From assembly GCA_965197645.1 (NCBI GenBank), contig OZ240219.1:320001-384000 (forward strand): a DNA stretch of 64,000 bases, written 5' to 3'. The notes beneath the pieces were generated by a model. That model worked only from the letters and a program-made list of their open reading frames with translations. It was not told the origin of the DNA and did not search any database. Position numbers and translations under genes: made by a program. Within the stretch, counting starts at the first letter, position 1. Each line of letters begins with the position of its first letter. This document shows positions 40,263 through 47,731 of the stretch, in pieces. Source of the DNA: Dehalococcoidia bacterium. GTDB lineage: Bacteria > Chloroflexota > Dehalococcoidia > Plut-88900.

Positions 40263-41453
40263 TTAGTGAATGCCGATCTCGCCGAACAGCCAGGCAGAGG
40301 GCAAGGGCCAGCCCTCTTGGAAGCGCCTGGAGGTGAAGATGGAGACGTCTATCAGGCTGGTCTCCCCCTCGACAATCAGCTCCGCCATCAGCTCGCCGGC
40401 CACCGGGGCCTGCTGCATACCAAGCCCTCCCCACCCCACCAGGTTGTAGAACCCCTCGACCTCTTCCGATTGCTCGATGATTGGGGACTCGTCGGGCGTG
40501 ATATCGTAGGCACACGAGTAACCACCCCTATATGACGCTCTCTCCAGGGCCGGGAACGTTCGACGGCCCTTGGCCAACGCCTTGACCAGGATCTCCTCGT
40601 CGGCGTCCTCGGGCATCGTGTCCGGGTCCACGATTTCCGGCTCCAGGATCTCCAGCGTGTCGACCGTATTGATCAGGTTGTCCGGCTCGCATCTGAAGAT
40701 GTAATCGGTGCGGCCATCGTGAAATATGGGCGTGAACGGGGGTAGGTCCCAGGGCAGCCGGAGAATCACCCCCTGGCCCCGTGTGGGTTGGATGGGAATT
40801 TCGATCCCCACCATTTGGCCGATTTGAGCTCCCCATATGCCGGCGCAGTTGACTACCGTAGGCGTAGATATCGACCCCTGTTTTGTCCTCACCGAGCGAA
40901 CCTTACCCATCGCCGACTCGATACCGGTGACCCCCGTCTCTTCGAAGATTAACGCACCCAACTCCCTTGCCCTATTGGCGTAGGCCACGGTCACTGCACC
41001 GGGGTTGCTATAGCCGGCGTCGGGGAAGTGCGCTGCGATACCCAGGCCATCGGCATTCAGGCCGGGCATCATCGTCGCCAGGTCCTGGATGGAGATGAAC
41101 TCGGCCTTGATCCCTACCTTTTGCGACAGGGCAACGGCCTGCTCGATGACGGGTCTCTTGGAATGCGGTTCGGCCCACACCCGGCCCAGCTTCCGGAAAT
41201 CGATGTCTCCTCCAACCACATCGTCGAAGTTCAGGTAGATGTCGTTGGCCTTCTTGATGATTCGAACCGTCTCCTCAACGGCATGGTAGGGCCGGACGTT
41301 GGCCAGCGACTTGCCGGTGGGGCCGCCGGCCAGGTAGCCTTTCTCCAGCAATACCACCTTCTTTACGCCCAGCTTGGCCAAGTGATAGGCGGTGCTTGCC
41401 CCCATGACCCCTCCACCTATGATCACCACTTCGGCCGTTTTGGGAAGCTCCAT
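40263..41453 (-). CDS. FAD-dependent oxidoreductase (sarcosine oxidase beta / DAO family)
   Basis: IIGGGVMGAS, VVNCAGIW, YDITPDESPII; start ATG 41453. Confidence 0.88.
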   Translation of the reverse strand: MELPKTAEVVIIGGGVMGASTAYHLAKLGVKKVVLLEKGYLAGGPTGKSLANVRPYHAVEETVRIIKKANDIYLNFDDVVGGDIDFRKLGRVWAEPHSKRPVIEQAVALSQKVGIKAEFISIQDLATMMPGLNADGLGIAAHFPDAGYSNPGAVTVAYANRARELGALIFEETGVTGIESAMGKVRSVRTKQGSISTPTVVNCAGIWGAQIGQMVGIEIPIQPTRGQGVILRLPWDLPPFTPIFHDGRTDYIFRCEPDNLINTVDTLEILEPEIVDPDTMPEDADEEILVKALAKGRRTFPALERASYRGGYSCAYDITPDESPIIEQSEEVEGFYNLVGWGGLGMQQAPVAGELMAELIVEGETSLIDVSIFTSRRFQEGWPLPSAWLFGEIGIH

Positions 41454-41590
41454 TGCAGGTCCTTTGCTATACGGGAGTTCGAGGGCAAGATATAGCCCTC
41501 GAGTCAATTTCGTCAAGCGGCTAGAAGTGGCTGGACCAGCGACCCATGTGGTAACGTTACCGGCGCTATCTGCACCTGAGGAGGAACAAC

Positions 41591-42250
41591 TTGAAACTCG
41601 ATCTAGCATCAGTCGACCACGTGCTCAATACCACCCGGTCCGTCCGCAAGCGCCTCGACTTCACCCGACGCGTCGAGCCCGAGGTGATCGAAGAGTGTCT
41701 GGACATCGCCATCCAGGCACCCACCGGCTCAAACCGGCAGGAGTGGTTCTTCATGGTGATTACGGACGAAGAAAAACGCCGCTCCATCTCCGAGCTGTAC
41801 AAGAAGGGGTTCTTCGCCTACATCACGCCCGAGACCGACATCGGGTCGGACTTCCCTGCCGATGATCCCCGCACCGAGCAGTCGACTCGGGTACGAGACT
41901 CCGCCATCTACCTCGCCGATAACATGCACCGGGCGCCGGTGTTCATCATCACGTGCATCGAAGGGCGCGTATCGGGCGGCAACGAGTCGGCCGCGGGGTT
42001 GATGGGCTCGATCTTGCCGGCCACATGGTCGTTGATGCTGGCCCTGCGATCCCGGGGTCTGGGCTCCGCCTGGACCACTCTCCACCTGCCCTACGAGCAG
42101 GAGACCGCCGAAATCCTAGGCATCCCGGACACCGTCAGCCAAGCGGCCCTCTTGCCCGTGGCCTACTTCACCGGTGAGGACTTCAAACCCGCCAGGCGTA
42201 TTCCCGCCAGAGAGGTGACCTACTGGGACTCGTGGGGAGCCAAGCGCTAG
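41591..42250 (+). CDS. Nitroreductase family protein
   Basis: TTRSVRKRLD, QAPTGSNRQ, RSRGLGSAWTT. Confidence 0.9.
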   Translation: MKLDLASVDHVLNTTRSVRKRLDFTRRVEPEVIEECLDIAIQAPTGSNRQEWFFMVITDEEKRRSISELYKKGFFAYITPETDIGSDFPADDPRTEQSTRVRDSAIYLADNMHRAPVFIITCIEGRVSGGNESAAGLMGSILPATWSLMLALRSRGLGSAWTTLHLPYEQETAEILGIPDTVSQAALLPVAYFTGEDFKPARRIPAREVTYWDSWGAKR

Positions 42251-43206
42251 CGCTTGATCCTCTCGATGAAGAGAGCCAGGAACCGGTTGGAGCTCACCCC
42301 CATGGCAACGCGACAGTTGGGAGGCGTCTTCACCTTGCCGCTGTTACCGAAAGGCACGGTCATACCCTGGGTCAGGCCCTCTTTGGTCTCGACGTAGAGC
42401 CTCATCGGTTCCAACCGCACCAACGACGGATCGATGACCGCTCCGACCGCGAGGGGATCGTGCAGGTAGGCGCCATCCATCCCAGCCTGGTTCCGCTCGA
42501 AGTCCATGTAGAGCCGGGAGCAGTCCACCACGAACTGGGGCACGGTGTTCGGGCCCGTCGCCAGCTCCCTCTCCGCCAGCACTCGTAACAATTTCGCTTT
42601 GTGGGTCACGTCCAGCGGCACCATCGTCACCGGGACGCAGAACCCAAACACCACGTCCTGGGCCTCCGGGTCTACGTAGGTGTTGAACTCGGCAGCCCCG
42701 AGGGGAGGAGCGTTGCCGGGTTCGATGATGGCGCCTCCCATGATGACGATCTCCTTGGCCTGGGACATGGCTATAGGGTGGGCCTGGACCGCCTTGGCGA
42801 CGTTGGTGACGGGGCCCGTAGCGATTATCGTCACCTCCCCCGAGTGCTCCTCGACCAACTCGGCCATCAGTTCCACTCCCGTTTTCTCCGAGACGTGCTT
42901 CCAGTCCAGCGGGGGAAAGTAGTCGTCCCCCAGGTCGCCGAGGCCATCGTTCCCGTGGACGCTGGAGGCGAAAAAAGCCTCCTTCACCAGCGGCCTGTCC
43001 TCCCCTCTGGCAACCATGGGCGGGTTCTCGATCCGGAGCACGGAAAGCACCCGCAGCACGTTCTTGGTGCAGTGGTCCACGTGGGTGTTGCCGCTGACCG
43101 TGGTAATGGCCAGCACATCCAGCTCCGGCGAGTTCATAGCCAGGATTATGGCCAGCGCATCATCAACGCCGCAGTCCACGTCCAGAATTACTTTCTTTCT
43201 CTCCAT
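42247..43206 (-). CDS. Inosine/uridine-preferring nucleoside hydrolase
   Basis: DVDCGVDDA, VHGNDGLG, AEFN..DPEA, YLHDP; 319 aa. Confidence 0.92.
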   Translation of the reverse strand: MERKKVILDVDCGVDDALAIILAMNSPELDVLAITTVSGNTHVDHCTKNVLRVLSVLRIENPPMVARGEDRPLVKEAFFASSVHGNDGLGDLGDDYFPPLDWKHVSEKTGVELMAELVEEHSGEVTIIATGPVTNVAKAVQAHPIAMSQAKEIVIMGGAIIEPGNAPPLGAAEFNTYVDPEAQDVVFGFCVPVTMVPLDVTHKAKLLRVLAERELATGPNTVPQFVVDCSRLYMDFERNQAGMDGAYLHDPLAVGAVIDPSLVRLEPMRLYVETKEGLTQGMTVPFGNSGKVKTPPNCRVAMGVSSNRFLALFIERIKR

Positions 43207-43214
43207 TTCGACTC

Positions 43215-44171
43215 CTAGCTCTTCATACTGTTCAGAAACAGTCTTACGAATCTCCCCGAGTCGGCCGACATGGCCACTCGGCAGTTGGGTGGGTTGCCGA
43301 CCTTTCCGTGGCTTCGATACCGGACCGTCATGCCCCGGGTTGGCGTGTTGGTGGTGTCTACGTATATCCGGCACGGTTCAGTCTCTATGAAAGAAGGATC
43401 TATGACCGCGCCCACGGTTAGAGGGTCGTGCAGTCAGGCTCCATCGAAACCCTCCTCCTCCTTTCCGATGTCCATGTACATCCTCGAAGACTCTGCTATG
43501 AATCTGGGCACGGCGTTCTCTGCCATTCCCAGCTCCTCCATCTGTTTCCTGGATACGCAGGCCTGATAGGTCGCGTCCACGGCGACCAACGTAACCGGCA
43601 CAGTAAACCCCAGGACTATCTCCAGCGCCTCCGGGTCGACGTAGGTGTTGAAGTCCGCTATCCTCAGCGGCGGCATCACACCCATCTCGTGGATAGCGCC
43701 GGCCATTACAACAATCCCTTTGGCTTTGGACATGGCCACCGGCTCCGATTGAATAGCTCGCGCTATGTTGGTAAGCGGCCCAACCCCTATGATGGTGACC
43801 TCGCCCGGGTGCTGCTCGATCAGTCTTGGCATTAGCTCCGTTGCCGGCTGGGACGATACCAGTCCCCAGTCGAGGGGCGGATAGTAATCGTCTCCCAGGT
43901 CGCCCAGACCGTCAAACCCGTGGACGAAGTCGGCGTAAACCGGCTCTTTGACGAGGGGGCGGTCCTCGCCTCTGGCCACCACGGGAGGAGATTCCATGTC
44001 CAACAACGCCAGTATGCGGAGCACGTTCTTGGTGCAATGGTCCACGTGGACATTACCGGTAACGGTGGTAATCGCCGCCACCTCCAGTTGAGGGGAGCGC
44101 AGGGCGAGAATGATGGCCATCGCATCGTCCACTCCGGCGTCCACGTCCAGAATCACTTTCTTTCTGTCCAT
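43215..44171 (-). CDS. Second nucleoside hydrolase with in-frame TGA at 43434-43436 (candidate selenocysteine, otherwise a nonsense pseudogene)
   Basis: DVDAGVDDA, VHGFDGLG; GFDGA-(TGA)-LHDPLTVGAVIDPS continues in frame to TAG 43215, giving 318 codons colinear with the neighbouring paralog. Confidence 0.8.
43397..43433 (-). promoter_or_regulatory. Candidate bacterial SECIS hairpin
   Basis: After UGA: cugcacgacccUCUA-ACCGU-gggc-GCGGU-ca-UAGA; G-led apical loop 21 nt downstream of the UGA. Confidence 0.4.
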
Positions 44172-44265: not shown

Positions 44266-45183
44266 TTGACACGAAGACCGATAGTTGTCGCCGGAAGCAT
44301 TAATATGGACCTGGTCGTCGGCCTGGAGAGGATGCCGAGGCCGGGCGAGACGGTGATGGGGGACGACATCCGGTACATTCCCGGGGGTAAGGGCTCGAAC
44401 CAGGCCATCGCCGCCAGGCGGCTCAGCGAGGCGCCAGTCACGCTGATCGGCAAGCTGGGCCGGGACGCCTTTGGCGACGAACTGCTCGACTACCTCCAGG
44501 CCCAGGACCTGCTGCTGCAGGGGCTCACCCGGTCTGAAAAGCCCAGCGGCACGGCCATCATAACCATAGATGCTACCTCTGAGAACGCCATCGTCGTCGT
44601 ACCGGGAGCGAACTTCGATCTGACTGTCGAGGACATTGACCAGATGGAAAACACGATAGCGAGCGCCGGTGTTGCCGTCTCCCAGCTGGAGCTGTCGTTG
44701 TCCGCTACGGAGCACTTCCTGCAGGTCGCCAAGGAGAAAGGCGCAGCGACGATCCTGAACGCCGCTCCGGCACGGCAGCTTGGCCGGACCATCCTCTCCT
44801 CCGTCGACTACCTGGTGGTCAACGAGACCGAGCTGGCCTTTTTCACCGGAGGAGGAGAGCCGACGGAAGACCGCAATTTGGTGATTGCCGGGGCGAAGAA
44901 GCTCCAGGCGCAAGGCCCACCCAACGTGGTCGTTACCCTCGGCGCCAAGGGCTCGGTCACCGTCGCCGGTGACGAGGTGATCTCCATCGATGGGTTGAGA
45001 GTAAACGCGGTCGACCCCACGGGTGCGGGCGACACCTTCATCGGCGGTCTGGCAGCCAAGCTCAACGCCGGTGCCGACCTCGAGCAGGCCCTGAACTTCG
45101 CCAACCGGGCCGCAGCCCAGGCGGTGCAGCGCCTGGGCGCCAGCTCTTCCATCCCCCACCTTTCCCAGGTAGTCGGGCCATGA
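44266..45183 (+). CDS. rbsK: Ribokinase
   Basis: GSINMD, PGGKGSNQA, NAAPA, VNETE, DPTGAGDTF. Confidence 0.93.
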   Translation: MTRRPIVVAGSINMDLVVGLERMPRPGETVMGDDIRYIPGGKGSNQAIAARRLSEAPVTLIGKLGRDAFGDELLDYLQAQDLLLQGLTRSEKPSGTAIITIDATSENAIVVVPGANFDLTVEDIDQMENTIASAGVAVSQLELSLSATEHFLQVAKEKGAATILNAAPARQLGRTILSSVDYLVVNETELAFFTGGGEPTEDRNLVIAGAKKLQAQGPPNVVVTLGAKGSVTVAGDEVISIDGLRVNAVDPTGAGDTFIGGLAAKLNAGADLEQALNFANRAAAQAVQRLGASSSIPHLSQVVGP

Positions 45184-45205: not shown

Positions 45206-46465
45206 ATGAACCTCGACTCCTCCATGGGTCCTTACCGGGCCTTGGACCTGACCGAAGGCGGATTCAACTGGTGCGGCAAAGTGCTGGCGGACCTGGGTGC
45301 GGACGTCATCAAGATCGAGCCGCCCAGGGGAAGCGACACCCGATACCGCGCTCCCTTCTACAACGATGAACCACACCCCGAGCGGAGCCTCTTCTGGTAC
45401 GCCTACTGTGTCAACAAGCGGGGCATCACCCTCAACCTGGAAACCGGCGACGGCCGAGAGCTGTTCAAACGGCTCGTTGCCGGTGCGGACTTCGTTCTGG
45501 AGTCCTTCCCGCCGGGCTACATGGCCGGCCTGGGCCTCGGCTACGAAGATCTGTCGAGGATCAACCCGCGTCTGGTGGTGACATCCATGACCCCTTACGG
45601 TCAGACCGGGCCCCATTCCCTTCACAAGACAACGGACATGGTGTCCTGGTCCATGGGCGGCATGCAGTACCTGACCGGCGAAGAGGACCGCGCCCCGCTT
45701 CGCATAACCTTTCCCCAGGCGGAGTTTCTGTGTGGCGCCCAGGCCTACGCCGGTTCGATGACTGCCTTCTGGCACCGGCAGAACACCGGCGAGGGCCAGC
45801 ACGTCGACGTCTCCACCCAGGTTGCCGTCATCTGGACCCTCATGAACGCCACCGCTTACCCCAAGCTGCACAAGGTAAATGTCGAGCGGGCCGGGATCTA
45901 CCATGGCGCCGGTCTGGTCGAGATTCGTACCGTCTTTCCTTGCAAGGACGGCTACATCGCCCTGACATTCGGAGGCGGACTGTTTGGGCCGTCGACTTCC
46001 GCCCTCGTCCGGTGGATGGACGAGGAGAGCATGGCGCCCGGTTTCATGGTGGAGCGGGACTGGCCGGCCTGGGACTTCGCCGATATCGCAGGTCAGGGAG
46101 AAAAGGGGGCGGCCGAGGTCCGGGCCATCGAAGGACACATGACCCGGTTCTTTGGCACCAAGACCAAGTCCCAGCTGTACCAACGCGCCTTCAACGATCG
46201 GATCCTCATCGGCCCTTGCAACAACGTCAAGGACATATGGGAGTATGAGCAGCTTCGGGCGCGGGGCTTCTATATCGAGGTGCATCACCCGGAGCTCCAG
46301 GTCTCCCTACCCTATCTGGGGCCCTACGTCAAGCTCGGTGAGTCACCCATTCAGATCCGACGTCCGGCGCCTGGGATAGGGGAACACAACGATGAGATAT
46401 TCGGCGACGAGCTGGGCCTGACCCGTGATGAACTGCTGCAGCTCGAAGGGATAGGAGCGGTCTAG
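45206..46465 (+). CDS. Family III CoA-transferase subunit (CaiB/BaiF; BbsE-like, catalytic Asp apparently absent)
   Basis: LADLGADVIKIEPP, NKRGITLNL, TGEGQHVDVS, APGIGEHN. Confidence 0.88.
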   Translation: MNLDSSMGPYRALDLTEGGFNWCGKVLADLGADVIKIEPPRGSDTRYRAPFYNDEPHPERSLFWYAYCVNKRGITLNLETGDGRELFKRLVAGADFVLESFPPGYMAGLGLGYEDLSRINPRLVVTSMTPYGQTGPHSLHKTTDMVSWSMGGMQYLTGEEDRAPLRITFPQAEFLCGAQAYAGSMTAFWHRQNTGEGQHVDVSTQVAVIWTLMNATAYPKLHKVNVERAGIYHGAGLVEIRTVFPCKDGYIALTFGGGLFGPSTSALVRWMDEESMAPGFMVERDWPAWDFADIAGQGEKGAAEVRAIEGHMTRFFGTKTKSQLYQRAFNDRILIGPCNNVKDIWEYEQLRARGFYIEVHHPELQVSLPYLGPYVKLGESPIQIRRPAPGIGEHNDEIFGDELGLTRDELLQLEGIGAV

Positions 46466-46468
46466 CTT

Positions 46469-47731
46469 TTGCCACAGCGAACAGCGTTTGAAAACATCAG
46501 GGTGCTGGACTTCACCTGGGTCGGTGTGGGGCCCATAACCACCAAGTACCTGGCGGACCACGGCGCAACGGTTCTGCGGGTGGAGTCGGCGTCCCGACCA
46601 GACCTGCTCCGCACCCTGGCACCTTTCAAGGACGGCGTGCCCGGCATCAATCGGAGCCAGTTCGCCGCCAACTTCAACACCAACAAGCTGAACCTGGGCC
46701 TCGATATGTCAAAGTCCCAGGCTAGAGAGCTGATACGGCGCATCATCCGCCTGTGGCAACCCGACATCGTCGCCGAGAGCTTTACCCCCAAGGTAATGCG
46801 CAACTGGGATCTGGACTACGAGCACGTGAAGGAGCTCAAGCCCGACGTAGTCTATTTCAGCGCCTGTCAGCAGGGTCAGACCGGCCCCTACTCCAGCTAC
46901 GCCGGTTATGGAGAGCTGGCTGCCGCCATGGCCGGCTACTACCACATCACCGGGTGGCCCGATCGGGACCTGATCGCTCCGTACGGCGCCTACTCCGACT
47001 TCGTCAACCCGCCCAACGCCTTCGGGGCCATAGTGGCCGCCCTGGAGTACCGACGCCGCACGGGCAAGGGGCAGCATATCGACCTCGCTCAGCTGGAGTG
47101 CGCCGCACATTTCATGGCTCCAGCCCTGATGGACTACGCTTCCAGCGGCAGGATCATGGCAAGGAACGGCAACCGGGACGATACCTTCGTGCCCCACGGC
47201 GTGTACCCCTGCAAGGAGAGCCCTTCAGACGACCCGGAAGTGCCCAGCCAGAGCGGGCACTGGTGTGTCATCGCCGTCTCATCAGACCAGGAATGGCGGG
47301 ACCTTTGTGAAATCATGGGCAACCCGGACTGGTGCCTGGAAGACCGGTTCGCCACCTTCTCGGCTCGGCGACAGCACGAGGACGACCTGGACCGCCTGAT
47401 CGGCCGGTGGACCTCCCGGTTCGAGGCAAAGGAGTTGATGGAGATGTGTCAGAGAGCCGGCGTTCCCTCGGGAGTGGTGCAGAGCCAGACTCAGCTGTGG
47501 GCCGACCCTCAGCTAAAGCATCAGGAGTACTTCCGGTGGCTGGACCACGTCGAGTGCGGTCCCATGCCCTACGACGGCCTCCAGTTCCAGCTTTCCAAAA
47601 CTCCCGGCGAGCATCTCAACGCCCATGCCCTCATCGGTCAGCACAACGAGATGGTGCTCAAGGAGTTCATCGGCCTGACCGACGAGGAGATCGGCCAGCT
47701 GGTGATCGACGAGGTACTGGAGACCTCCTAG
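46469..47731 (+). CDS. Family III CoA-transferase subunit (BbsF-like, catalytic Asp in YSDF)
   Basis: VLDFTW..VGP, LADHGA, GWPDR, YSDF, TGKGQHIDL. Confidence 0.88.
   Translation: MPQRTAFENIRVLDFTWVGVGPITTKYLADHGATVLRVESASRPDLLRTLAPFKDGVPGINRSQFAANFNTNKLNLGLDMSKSQARELIRRIIRLWQPDIVAESFTPKVMRNWDLDYEHVKELKPDVVYFSACQQGQTGPYSSYAGYGELAAAMAGYYHITGWPDRDLIAPYGAYSDFVNPPNAFGAIVAALEYRRRTGKGQHIDLAQLECAAHFMAPALMDYASSGRIMARNGNRDDTFVPHGVYPCKESPSDDPEVPSQSGHWCVIAVSSDQEWRDLCEIMGNPDWCLEDRFATFSARRQHEDDLDRLIGRWTSRFEAKELMEMCQRAGVPSGVVQSQTQLWADPQLKHQEYFRWLDHVECGPMPYDGLQFQLSKTPGEHLNAHALIGQHNEMVLKEFIGLTDEEIGQLVIDEVLETS

Follow-up and report, generated by a model that had tools for sequence, protein, structure and literature searches.

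A probable selenocysteine codon in a diverged nucleoside hydrolase paralog of a Dehalococcoidia bacterium

Introduction

In nucleoside hydrolases (NHs) neither the sheet nor the active site is complete without the C-terminal strands and the C-terminal helix (PMC8910321, section 2.3.1). The group III enzymes have an active-site cysteine in the leaving-group pocket, and this residue is described as taking part in leaving-group activation (PMC8910321, section 2.3.3). Two characterized enzymes serve as points of reference for the gene reported here. RihA/YbeK of Escherichia coli (PDB 3G5I, 1YOE), a group I enzyme, has the same fold and belongs to the same family (phmmer E=1.3e-50, residues 6-317), and the group III NH of Caenorhabditis elegans (PDB 5MJ7) is a sequence relative (E=1.1e-21).

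Selenocysteine (Sec) in bacteria is expected to be accompanied by a short hairpin 3' of the UGA, the bacterial SECIS (bSECIS) element. The published model gives this hairpin a loop of 3-9 nt with a G in the first two loop positions and an upper stem of 4-16 bp (PMC13188914), and the legend to Fig. 2 of that article sets the spacing at 16-37 nt and the minimum free energy at -7.5 kcal/mol or lower. According to BSepDB, a canonical SECIS is found for 87.4% of the entries, and Dehalococcoidia are among the bacteria richest in selenoprotein genes (PMC13326102). The Sec enzymes known so far are almost all oxidoreductases. Full-text literature searches returned no report of a selenoprotein in the nucleoside hydrolase family, the supplementary family lists lying outside these searches, so that a listing there is possible. 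Neither "nucleoside" nor "hydrolase" occurs in the main text of PMC13188914, PMC13326102 or PMC12013277.

Here we analyse a pair of NH genes from a Dehalococcoidia bacterium. They lie in a 64-kb stretch of DNA, referred to below as the window, which corresponds to C1:320001-384000 of a 3.21-Mb single-contig genome whose relatives are annotated as Chloroflexota or Dehalococcoidia. One of the two genes is interrupted by an in-frame TGA beside the codon for the catalytic histidine, and it had been proposed from the sequence of the window, before any database search, that this UGA encodes Sec in a family not known to contain selenoproteins. We refer to that proposal as the original prediction.

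The tandem hydrolase genes and the in-frame TGA

Both hydrolase genes are located on the minus strand. The TGA-containing paralog (43215..44171; here called the U copy) is 318 codons long when the TGA is counted and ends with a TAG, and the Tyr-bearing paralog (42247..43206; the Y copy) encodes a protein of 319 aa that matches PF01156 with 291.8 bits. The two copies are 62% identical, and the ATG of the Y copy (43206) lies 8 nt past the TAG of the U copy. A ribokinase gene on the plus strand (44266..45183; TIGR02152 304.3 bits, cut-off 299.65; PfkB) is divergent from both. The syntenic locus in one related genome has a single hydrolase adjoining a ribokinase-sized ORF.

The TGA is codon 246 of the U copy (43434..43436, minus strand) and precedes His248-Asp249 by two residues. 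Its surroundings, GAT GGA GCC TGA CTG CAC GAC CCT, translate as GFDGA-stop-LHDP, and at the matching site the Y copy reads GMDGA-Y-LHDP, with TAC as the Tyr codon. No other lesion is found in the 318 codons, and past the TGA the frame is open for 72 codons (43215..43433, minus strand) as far as the TAG at 43217..43215. The original prediction had described the tandem paralogs with their two motifs, the frame of about 72 codons ending in a TAG 8 nt before the next start, and the lengths of 318 and 319 aa; all of these sequence statements hold.

When read through the TGA, the U copy is recognized as a member of the IU-nucleoside hydrolase family, with a PF01156 match that runs in one stretch across the TGA from residue 6 to residue 309 (273.5 bits, cut-off 34.2). 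Its scores against the NCBIfam equivalogs are far under the cut-offs (RihA, 222.8 vs 433). The group I calcium fingerprint DxDxxxDD is present (D9, D11, D15 and D16), as are Asn40, His84, Thr134 and Asn175, and the catalytic His248 and the third Ca-binding Asp249 are both encoded 3' of the TGA. An AlphaFold2 model of the read-through protein, built from a 56-row alignment, has a mean pLDDT of 96.2 and a pTM of 0.94 and displays the NH fold as a single domain, with its C-terminal strands and helix. In this model residue 246 ends a short strand (244-246) just ahead of the helix that starts at His248, and the C-terminal part consists of strands 262-267, 269-271, 282-284 and 297-303 followed by helix 305-317.

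The U copy departs from the family in the G-N ... A-E-F-N segment, whose invariant Asn and Glu are both replaced. The Asn, present in 120/120 other homologs and in 126/126 cluster representatives, is Val in the U copy (N165V), and the Glu, present in 119/120 and 126/126, respectively, is Asp (E173D); the five members of the TGA lineage described below all carry both replacements. From the C. fasciculata structure, we take the Asn and Glu of this segment to be ligands of the ribose hydroxyls. N165V and E173D suggest a changed substrate, and an alternative reading is that the ancestral activity has been lost. In combination with the low dN/dS reported below, they would indicate that the sugar pocket was remodelled and the substrate is new, rather than that the gene is decaying. 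In a maximum-likelihood tree, computed in quick mode only, the U copy sits in an unresolved fork on a long branch (0.52).

Selenocysteine use in the genome

The observation of the original prediction that the window contains no sel genes is correct, and a search of the whole genome, which had been recommended, located the full Sec machinery elsewhere on the contig. The genes selA (547.7 bits), selB (346.8 bits) and selD (379.7 bits) all score above the curated cut-offs, selD itself having one in-frame TGA, and tRNA-Sec was detected with 66.4 bits and the ARAGORN anticodon tca. The U copy is consequently an otherwise intact frame with an in-frame UGA in a genome that has selA, selB, selD and tRNA-Sec.

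The genome was also scanned for TGAs that have coding-like sequence on both sides in one frame, and 20 candidates were put through Pfam. In 11 of these interrupted frames the TGA falls within a domain of a known selenoprotein family: AhpC/TSA (two cases), DsbA, thioredoxin-like/NHL, OsmC, UGSC (two cases), GrdB, rhodanese, CMD and ferredoxin-thioredoxin reductase (FTR), with two TGAs in the gene for the FTR catalytic chain. Together with SelD, there are at least 12 selenoprotein genes of known families in the genome, and the organism uses Sec widely. Seven of the 20 top candidates are merely neighbouring genes that share a frame. The remaining two, a Zn-alcohol dehydrogenase and a CoA-transferase, are outside the known selenoprotein families.

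Since TGA ends 620 of the 1977 long ORFs (TAG ends 985 and TAA 372), it is an ordinary stop in this genome. Stops flanked by coding-like sequence, counted at three thresholds, displayed no usable excess of TGA (TGA 426/58/29, TAG 824/151/59, TAA 160/37/20), and the size of the selenoproteome is therefore not estimated from these counts.

The residue at the TGA position in homologs

The column occupied by the TGA is dominated by Tyr. It is Tyr in 85, Phe in 10 and Cys in 6 of the 120 other homologs, and among the 126 cluster representatives the residues include Tyr (41), Ala (23), Pro (11), Phe (11), His (10), Cys (4) and Trp (2); E. coli RihA has Pro. In all, Cys was seen in 10/246 homologs, each only 36-42% identical to the U copy, and in no close relative. 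The original prediction had called for Cys or TGA to be sought at this column in orthologs. In close orthologs beyond the small TGA lineage neither was seen, and Tyr stands there instead.

Forty related genomes were searched in total, yielding a stop-free copy in 13 and no match in 27. No TGA copy was found in the 11 other genomes of the same family, each of which holds one stop-free copy, or in 29 more distant relatives, where matches were obtained in two genomes, both stop-free. Loci related to the U copy in genome and metagenome contigs were Tyr-type or partial relatives only. In a set of 1.84 billion representatives the truncated U-copy ORF constitutes its own 50% cluster, and the best 150 of the 15298 hits in that set included no other truncated forms. 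A search with region 120-246 found no short N-terminal fragments ending at the stop.

The hairpin 3' of the TGA

A SECIS-like hairpin directly downstream of the TGA was part of the original prediction, and it exists as described at 43422..43399 (43399..43422, minus strand), 12-35 nt 3' of the TGA. The candidate element, UCUA-ACCGU-GGGC-GCGGU-CA-UAGA, is composed of 5 bp, a 2-nt bulge and 4 bp (-6.6 kcal/mol), and its 4-nt loop (GGGC, 43413..43410) has G as the first base and starts about 20-21 nt past the TGA. Loop, stem, G and spacing all fit the bSECIS model, whereas the energy of -6.6 misses the limit of -7.5 kcal/mol.

The hairpin is statistically unremarkable, however, and the weight placed on it in the original prediction is reduced to little or none. 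Shuffled versions of the 24-mer folded as well in 32/200 cases (z=-1.1), and for the 57 nt counted from the TGA the corresponding number was 43/200 (z=-0.82). With loose criteria, a bSECIS-like hairpin of equal or better quality occurs at 54% of 250 random in-frame coding positions, for which reason the loose search was rejected as evidence. In a stricter test, stems of at least 5 bp were found at 11/15 Sec sites of known families vs 13.8% of 20000 random positions, and stems of at least 6 bp at 9/15 vs 5.6%. The 5-bp hairpin of the U copy is thus weak support for Sec at best. It had further been noted that the sequence of the Y copy does not form this stem. The exact stem is indeed absent, but the Y copy has a 5-bp hairpin of equal grade, with a GAG loop 22 nt past the Tyr codon. 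The conserved V-G-A-V codons probably account for part of the U-copy stem.

Conservation of the stop and selection on the U copy

At 90% identity, the truncated ORF of 245 aa falls into a cluster of five proteins from different assemblies (identities of 90-95%), each of which terminates in ...GFDGA. The concern that the TGA might be private to this assembly is thereby settled, and a private, recent nonsense mutation is excluded. All stop-bearing sequences, being at least 90% identical, constitute one shallow lineage. Two of the five members share an in-frame insertion of 3 nt (one residue) that keeps the frame.

Independent support for the TGA region, also asked for in the original prediction, comes from sequencing runs. 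A Logan assembly of the probable source run is identical to the window over all 1001 bases. A contig from run X3, which belongs to another study, spans the U copy with 45 differences and no gaps, and a third run, again free of gaps, has 10 differences over 43288-43716. Cluster member P0123 has 13 amino-acid differences, and 10 of them are accounted for by the X3 differences that are listed (39 of the 45). For codons 1-175 the listed differences between X3 and the window give a dN/dS of 0.157 at a dS of 0.22, and by arithmetic the ratio becomes approximately 0.19 once three further replacements are added. As the X3 tally of change types contains no C>T beyond the listed differences, the stop has not been turned into TAA or TAG in the X3 strain; the identity of the relatives' stop as TGA is deduced in this way for X3, and the other strains are known from the protein end only.

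The U copy also evolves as slowly as its intact neighbour: between this genome and a genome with a 3,153,984-base contig, 233/245 residues are identical in the U copy and 304/318 in the Y copy. The amino-acid differences of cluster members P0125 and P0126 are concentrated on columns that are variable in the family (p=0.002 and 0.003). Judging from these comparisons, which for selection cover codons 1-245 only, the U copy is under purifying selection. Relaxed selection, further lesions and a private lesion, by which a pseudogene would be recognized, are all lacking, and an old pseudogene is excluded by the purifying selection and by a divergence equal to that of the Y copy. The conservation of the stop together with purifying selection is the strongest evidence in this case.

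Of the alternatives to Sec, the one that survives best, although we regard it as unlikely, is a nonsense mutation passed down within a few related strains, with the TGA acting as a plain stop and the U copy inactive or decaying and redundant with the intact Y copy. The shallowness of the lineage agrees with this, as do the Tyr rather than Cys at the column in homologs, a hairpin no better than chance and matched by that of the Y copy, the loss of two otherwise invariant active-site residues and the functional paralog 8 nt downstream. Moreover, in one strain the 3' 467 bases are near-identical to the window (at most three differences), so its stop may not be independent. An inactive gene would, however, hardly be expected to have a dN/dS of 0.16-0.19 since the strains split, to diverge no faster than the Y copy between the same two genomes, or to be free of a second lesion across 318 codons and of gaps in two other contigs. 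The frame-keeping insertion and the placement of the P0125 and P0126 differences likewise speak against decay, as does the C-terminal ORF of a distant relative, conserved in the pattern of the family (see below), and the long U branch would reflect a long separate life while the gene was intact.

Improbable, to a greater degree, is a leaky stop, that is, low-level read-through of UGA-C by a near-cognate tRNA (e.g., for Trp), in which an ordinary residue would occupy position 246 and selection would operate without selenium. The base after the TGA is C, and termination in E. coli is weakest in the context UGA-C. At the column aromatic residues predominate, Trp itself being found in 2/126 representatives, and a convincing SECIS is absent. 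On the other hand, the organism has a complete and heavily used Sec system, TGA is an ordinary stop in its long ORFs, and a hairpin of the right geometry is present. No conserved leaky nonsense codon is known to us from the core of any bacterial enzyme.

The segment downstream of the TGA

Six codons separate the TGA from a GTG at codon 253 and encode LHDPLT, the family consensus, which includes the catalytic His and the third Ca-binding Asp, and the U copy aligns to E. coli RihA through residue 317. In the AlphaFold2 model the 72 downstream residues supply the His248 helix, four beta-strands and the C-terminal helix. The GTG opens an ORF of 66 aa. A more distant relative has, on a 601-base contig, an ORF of the same length with the same GTG start (P0127), which shares 74% identity with the C-terminal segment of the U copy. 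Its 17 differences lie on family-variable columns (mean entropy 2.81 vs 1.83 bits; one-sided Mann-Whitney p=1.3e-4), a pattern that, at the level of sequence, is the signature of protein-level constraint. That the gene caller started P0127 at the GTG and not upstream suggests an upstream stop there too. The downstream part thus looks translated. The codon-bias score of the U copy falls from 0.31 upstream to 0.127 downstream of the TGA; this was rejected as a diagnostic because the intact Y copy shows a similar fall (0.389 vs 0.266).

These data bear on a further explanation, to which we assign slightly less credence than to a leaky stop, namely that the 245-residue product is itself under selection, e.g., as a non-catalytic partner of the Y copy, the downstream codons being a remnant that has yet to decay or a separately started piece of 66 aa. 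Purifying selection was measured upstream of the TGA, the GTG could start the separate piece, and plant NH paralogs are described as forming heteromers in which one partner modulates the other (PMC8910321). Such a product would, however, be deprived of essential parts: neither the catalytic His nor the third Ca-binding Asp would belong to it, and the fold would lose core strands and the C-terminal helix. The LHDPLT codons are intact and follow the consensus, no Shine-Dalgarno-like motif was found at a usable distance before the GTG, and the downstream ORF of the distant relative obeys family constraints.

An error of sequencing or assembly, which the original prediction had listed as an alternative to Sec, is refuted by the identical independent assembly of the probable source run and by four further assemblies that end the protein at the same residue, and nothing was found in its favour, even though the genome is a single-contig assembly of metagenome type with an estimated contamination of 6.35%.

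A putative selenoenzyme with a nucleoside hydrolase fold

With these alternatives weighed, we favour the reading that the TGA is a genuine Sec codon in a neofunctionalised hydrolase paralog, which would probably represent a new selenoprotein family, and give it a probability of about 0.6. The central claim of the original prediction, a UGA read as Sec in a family not known for selenoproteins, has accordingly survived each refutation test named for it, and the insertion of Sec itself is what we infer. Under this reading, codon 246 would be decoded by the SelA/SelB/SelD/tRNA-Sec system of the organism, possibly with the help of the hairpin, and the product would be a full-length protein of 318 residues with the NH fold. 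Sec would be the last residue of a short strand (residues 244-246) running up to His248-Asp249, the motif for catalysis and Ca binding. The protein would be a diverged paralog of the canonical hydrolase encoded next to it. With N165V and E173D in a site that keeps the residues listed above, an altered sugar pocket would be combined with a selenol(ate) in or beside the leaving-group pocket, and the substrate would probably be a modified nucleoside rather than the ordinary ribonucleosides.

Several points count against Sec: the Tyr-dominated column, the chance-level hairpin, the lack of a TGA copy outside one lineage in the genomes and representatives searched, and the chemistry, nucleoside hydrolysis being a non-redox reaction. 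A more specific version of the Sec reading is offered tentatively, as something we find possible and would not yet bet on. Here the U copy would found a selenoprotein family in a non-redox fold of the glycosidase type, in which Sec has taken the place of an aromatic residue beside the catalytic His, Asn165 and Glu173 have been exchanged, and the enzyme acts on modified nucleosides with a selenolate in leaving-group chemistry, in a role similar to that of the active-site Cys of the group III NHs. The substrate could then be, e.g., a nucleoside that is 5'-substituted or that carries sulfur, selenium or halogen.

With Sec confirmed, the locus would be a tractable test case in which the Y copy next door provides a built-in control. 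It also illustrates that SECIS prediction from hairpins has its limits when a genome is GC-rich; here stop conservation and purifying selection, not the hairpin, carry the argument.

Comparison with known systems

The U copy and E. coli RihA share DxDxxxDD, His84, Thr134, Asn175 and His248-Asp249, and the U copy adjoins a ribokinase gene, as expected for nucleoside catabolism. The U copy has a TGA two residues before the catalytic His, where RihA has Pro and the close homologs of the U copy have Tyr. It differs also in having Val165 and Asp173 in place of Asn and Glu.

The selenoprotein genes of the same genome resemble the U copy in that the TGA is inside a single conserved domain and is followed 16-29 nt later by a small hairpin loop led by G. 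In these genes (SelD, AhpC/TSA, DsbA, OsmC, UGSC, GrdB, rhodanese, CMD and FTR) the TGAs are located at known redox Cys/Sec positions. The TGA of the U copy, in contrast, is in a Tyr-dominated column of a non-redox family, and its hairpin has an upper stem of 5 bp and an energy of -6.6 kcal/mol.

The Cys of the group III NHs takes the place of the His or Trp that immediately precedes the last Asp, whereas the U copy keeps the His and has its candidate Sec two residues earlier. With few exceptions, the selenoproteins known so far are oxidoreductases whose Sec stands in for a redox Cys. If the Sec reading is true, an N-glycosidic hydrolase would have a conserved Sec in its leaving-group pocket, at a residue that is Tyr in its relatives, and this would widen the chemistry attributed to selenium.

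Genomic neighbourhood and mosaicism of the TGA-containing hydrolase gene

In the window, the ribokinase gene is followed by two CoA-transferase family III genes (PF02515), which are located side by side on the forward strand (45206-47731). Beyond the intact Tyr paralog of the nucleoside hydrolase there are a nitroreductase gene on the forward strand (41591-42250) and a FAD-dependent oxidoreductase gene on the reverse strand (40263-41609). When the TGA gene is compared between the window and the contig of X3, a sequencing run of another study, the 467 bases at the 3' end of that gene (43180-43646) display at most three differences and the 525 bases at its 5' end (43647-44171) at least 39, with a dS of 0.22. 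This abrupt mosaic boundary could reflect recent recombination of the TGA-carrying segment.

Other genes with in-frame TGA codons

The selD gene of the same genome (G000:C1, a single contig) is itself a selenoprotein gene, with a TGA on the forward strand (position 941874; L001:1531-1533) in the context ...CAG-U-ASK..., where U is the TGA read as Sec, and an 8-bp stem with a GUA loop 27 nt downstream. In the gene for the catalytic chain of ferredoxin-thioredoxin reductase (PF02943, reverse strand), the C-P-x motif and the C-I-x motif each carry an in-frame TGA (1202982 and 1202886; L050:265-267 and 169-171); the two codons are separated by 96 nt, and a hairpin follows each of them. In a gene for a Zn-dependent alcohol dehydrogenase with the domains ADH_N and ADH_zinc_N (2857718-2858809, reverse strand), the in-frame TGA (2858689; L047:970-972) occupies the G-V-x-H-S-D position, the usual site of the catalytic zinc Cys, and our hairpin search detected a weak hairpin for it (4-bp stem, -1.8 kcal/mol).

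Finally, a CoA-transferase gene on the forward strand (PF01144, 67.8 bits; 1709609-1710484) has a TGA (1709918; L053:310-312) in frame within the domain (...KDNT-U-GIMYS...), and a hairpin with a 7-bp stem and a GGC loop lies 23 nt downstream; just 2.2% of the background positions, chosen randomly from the genome, gave stems of 7 bp or more. This CoA-transferase is a candidate selenoprotein of a family that, to our knowledge, is not among the known selenoprotein families.
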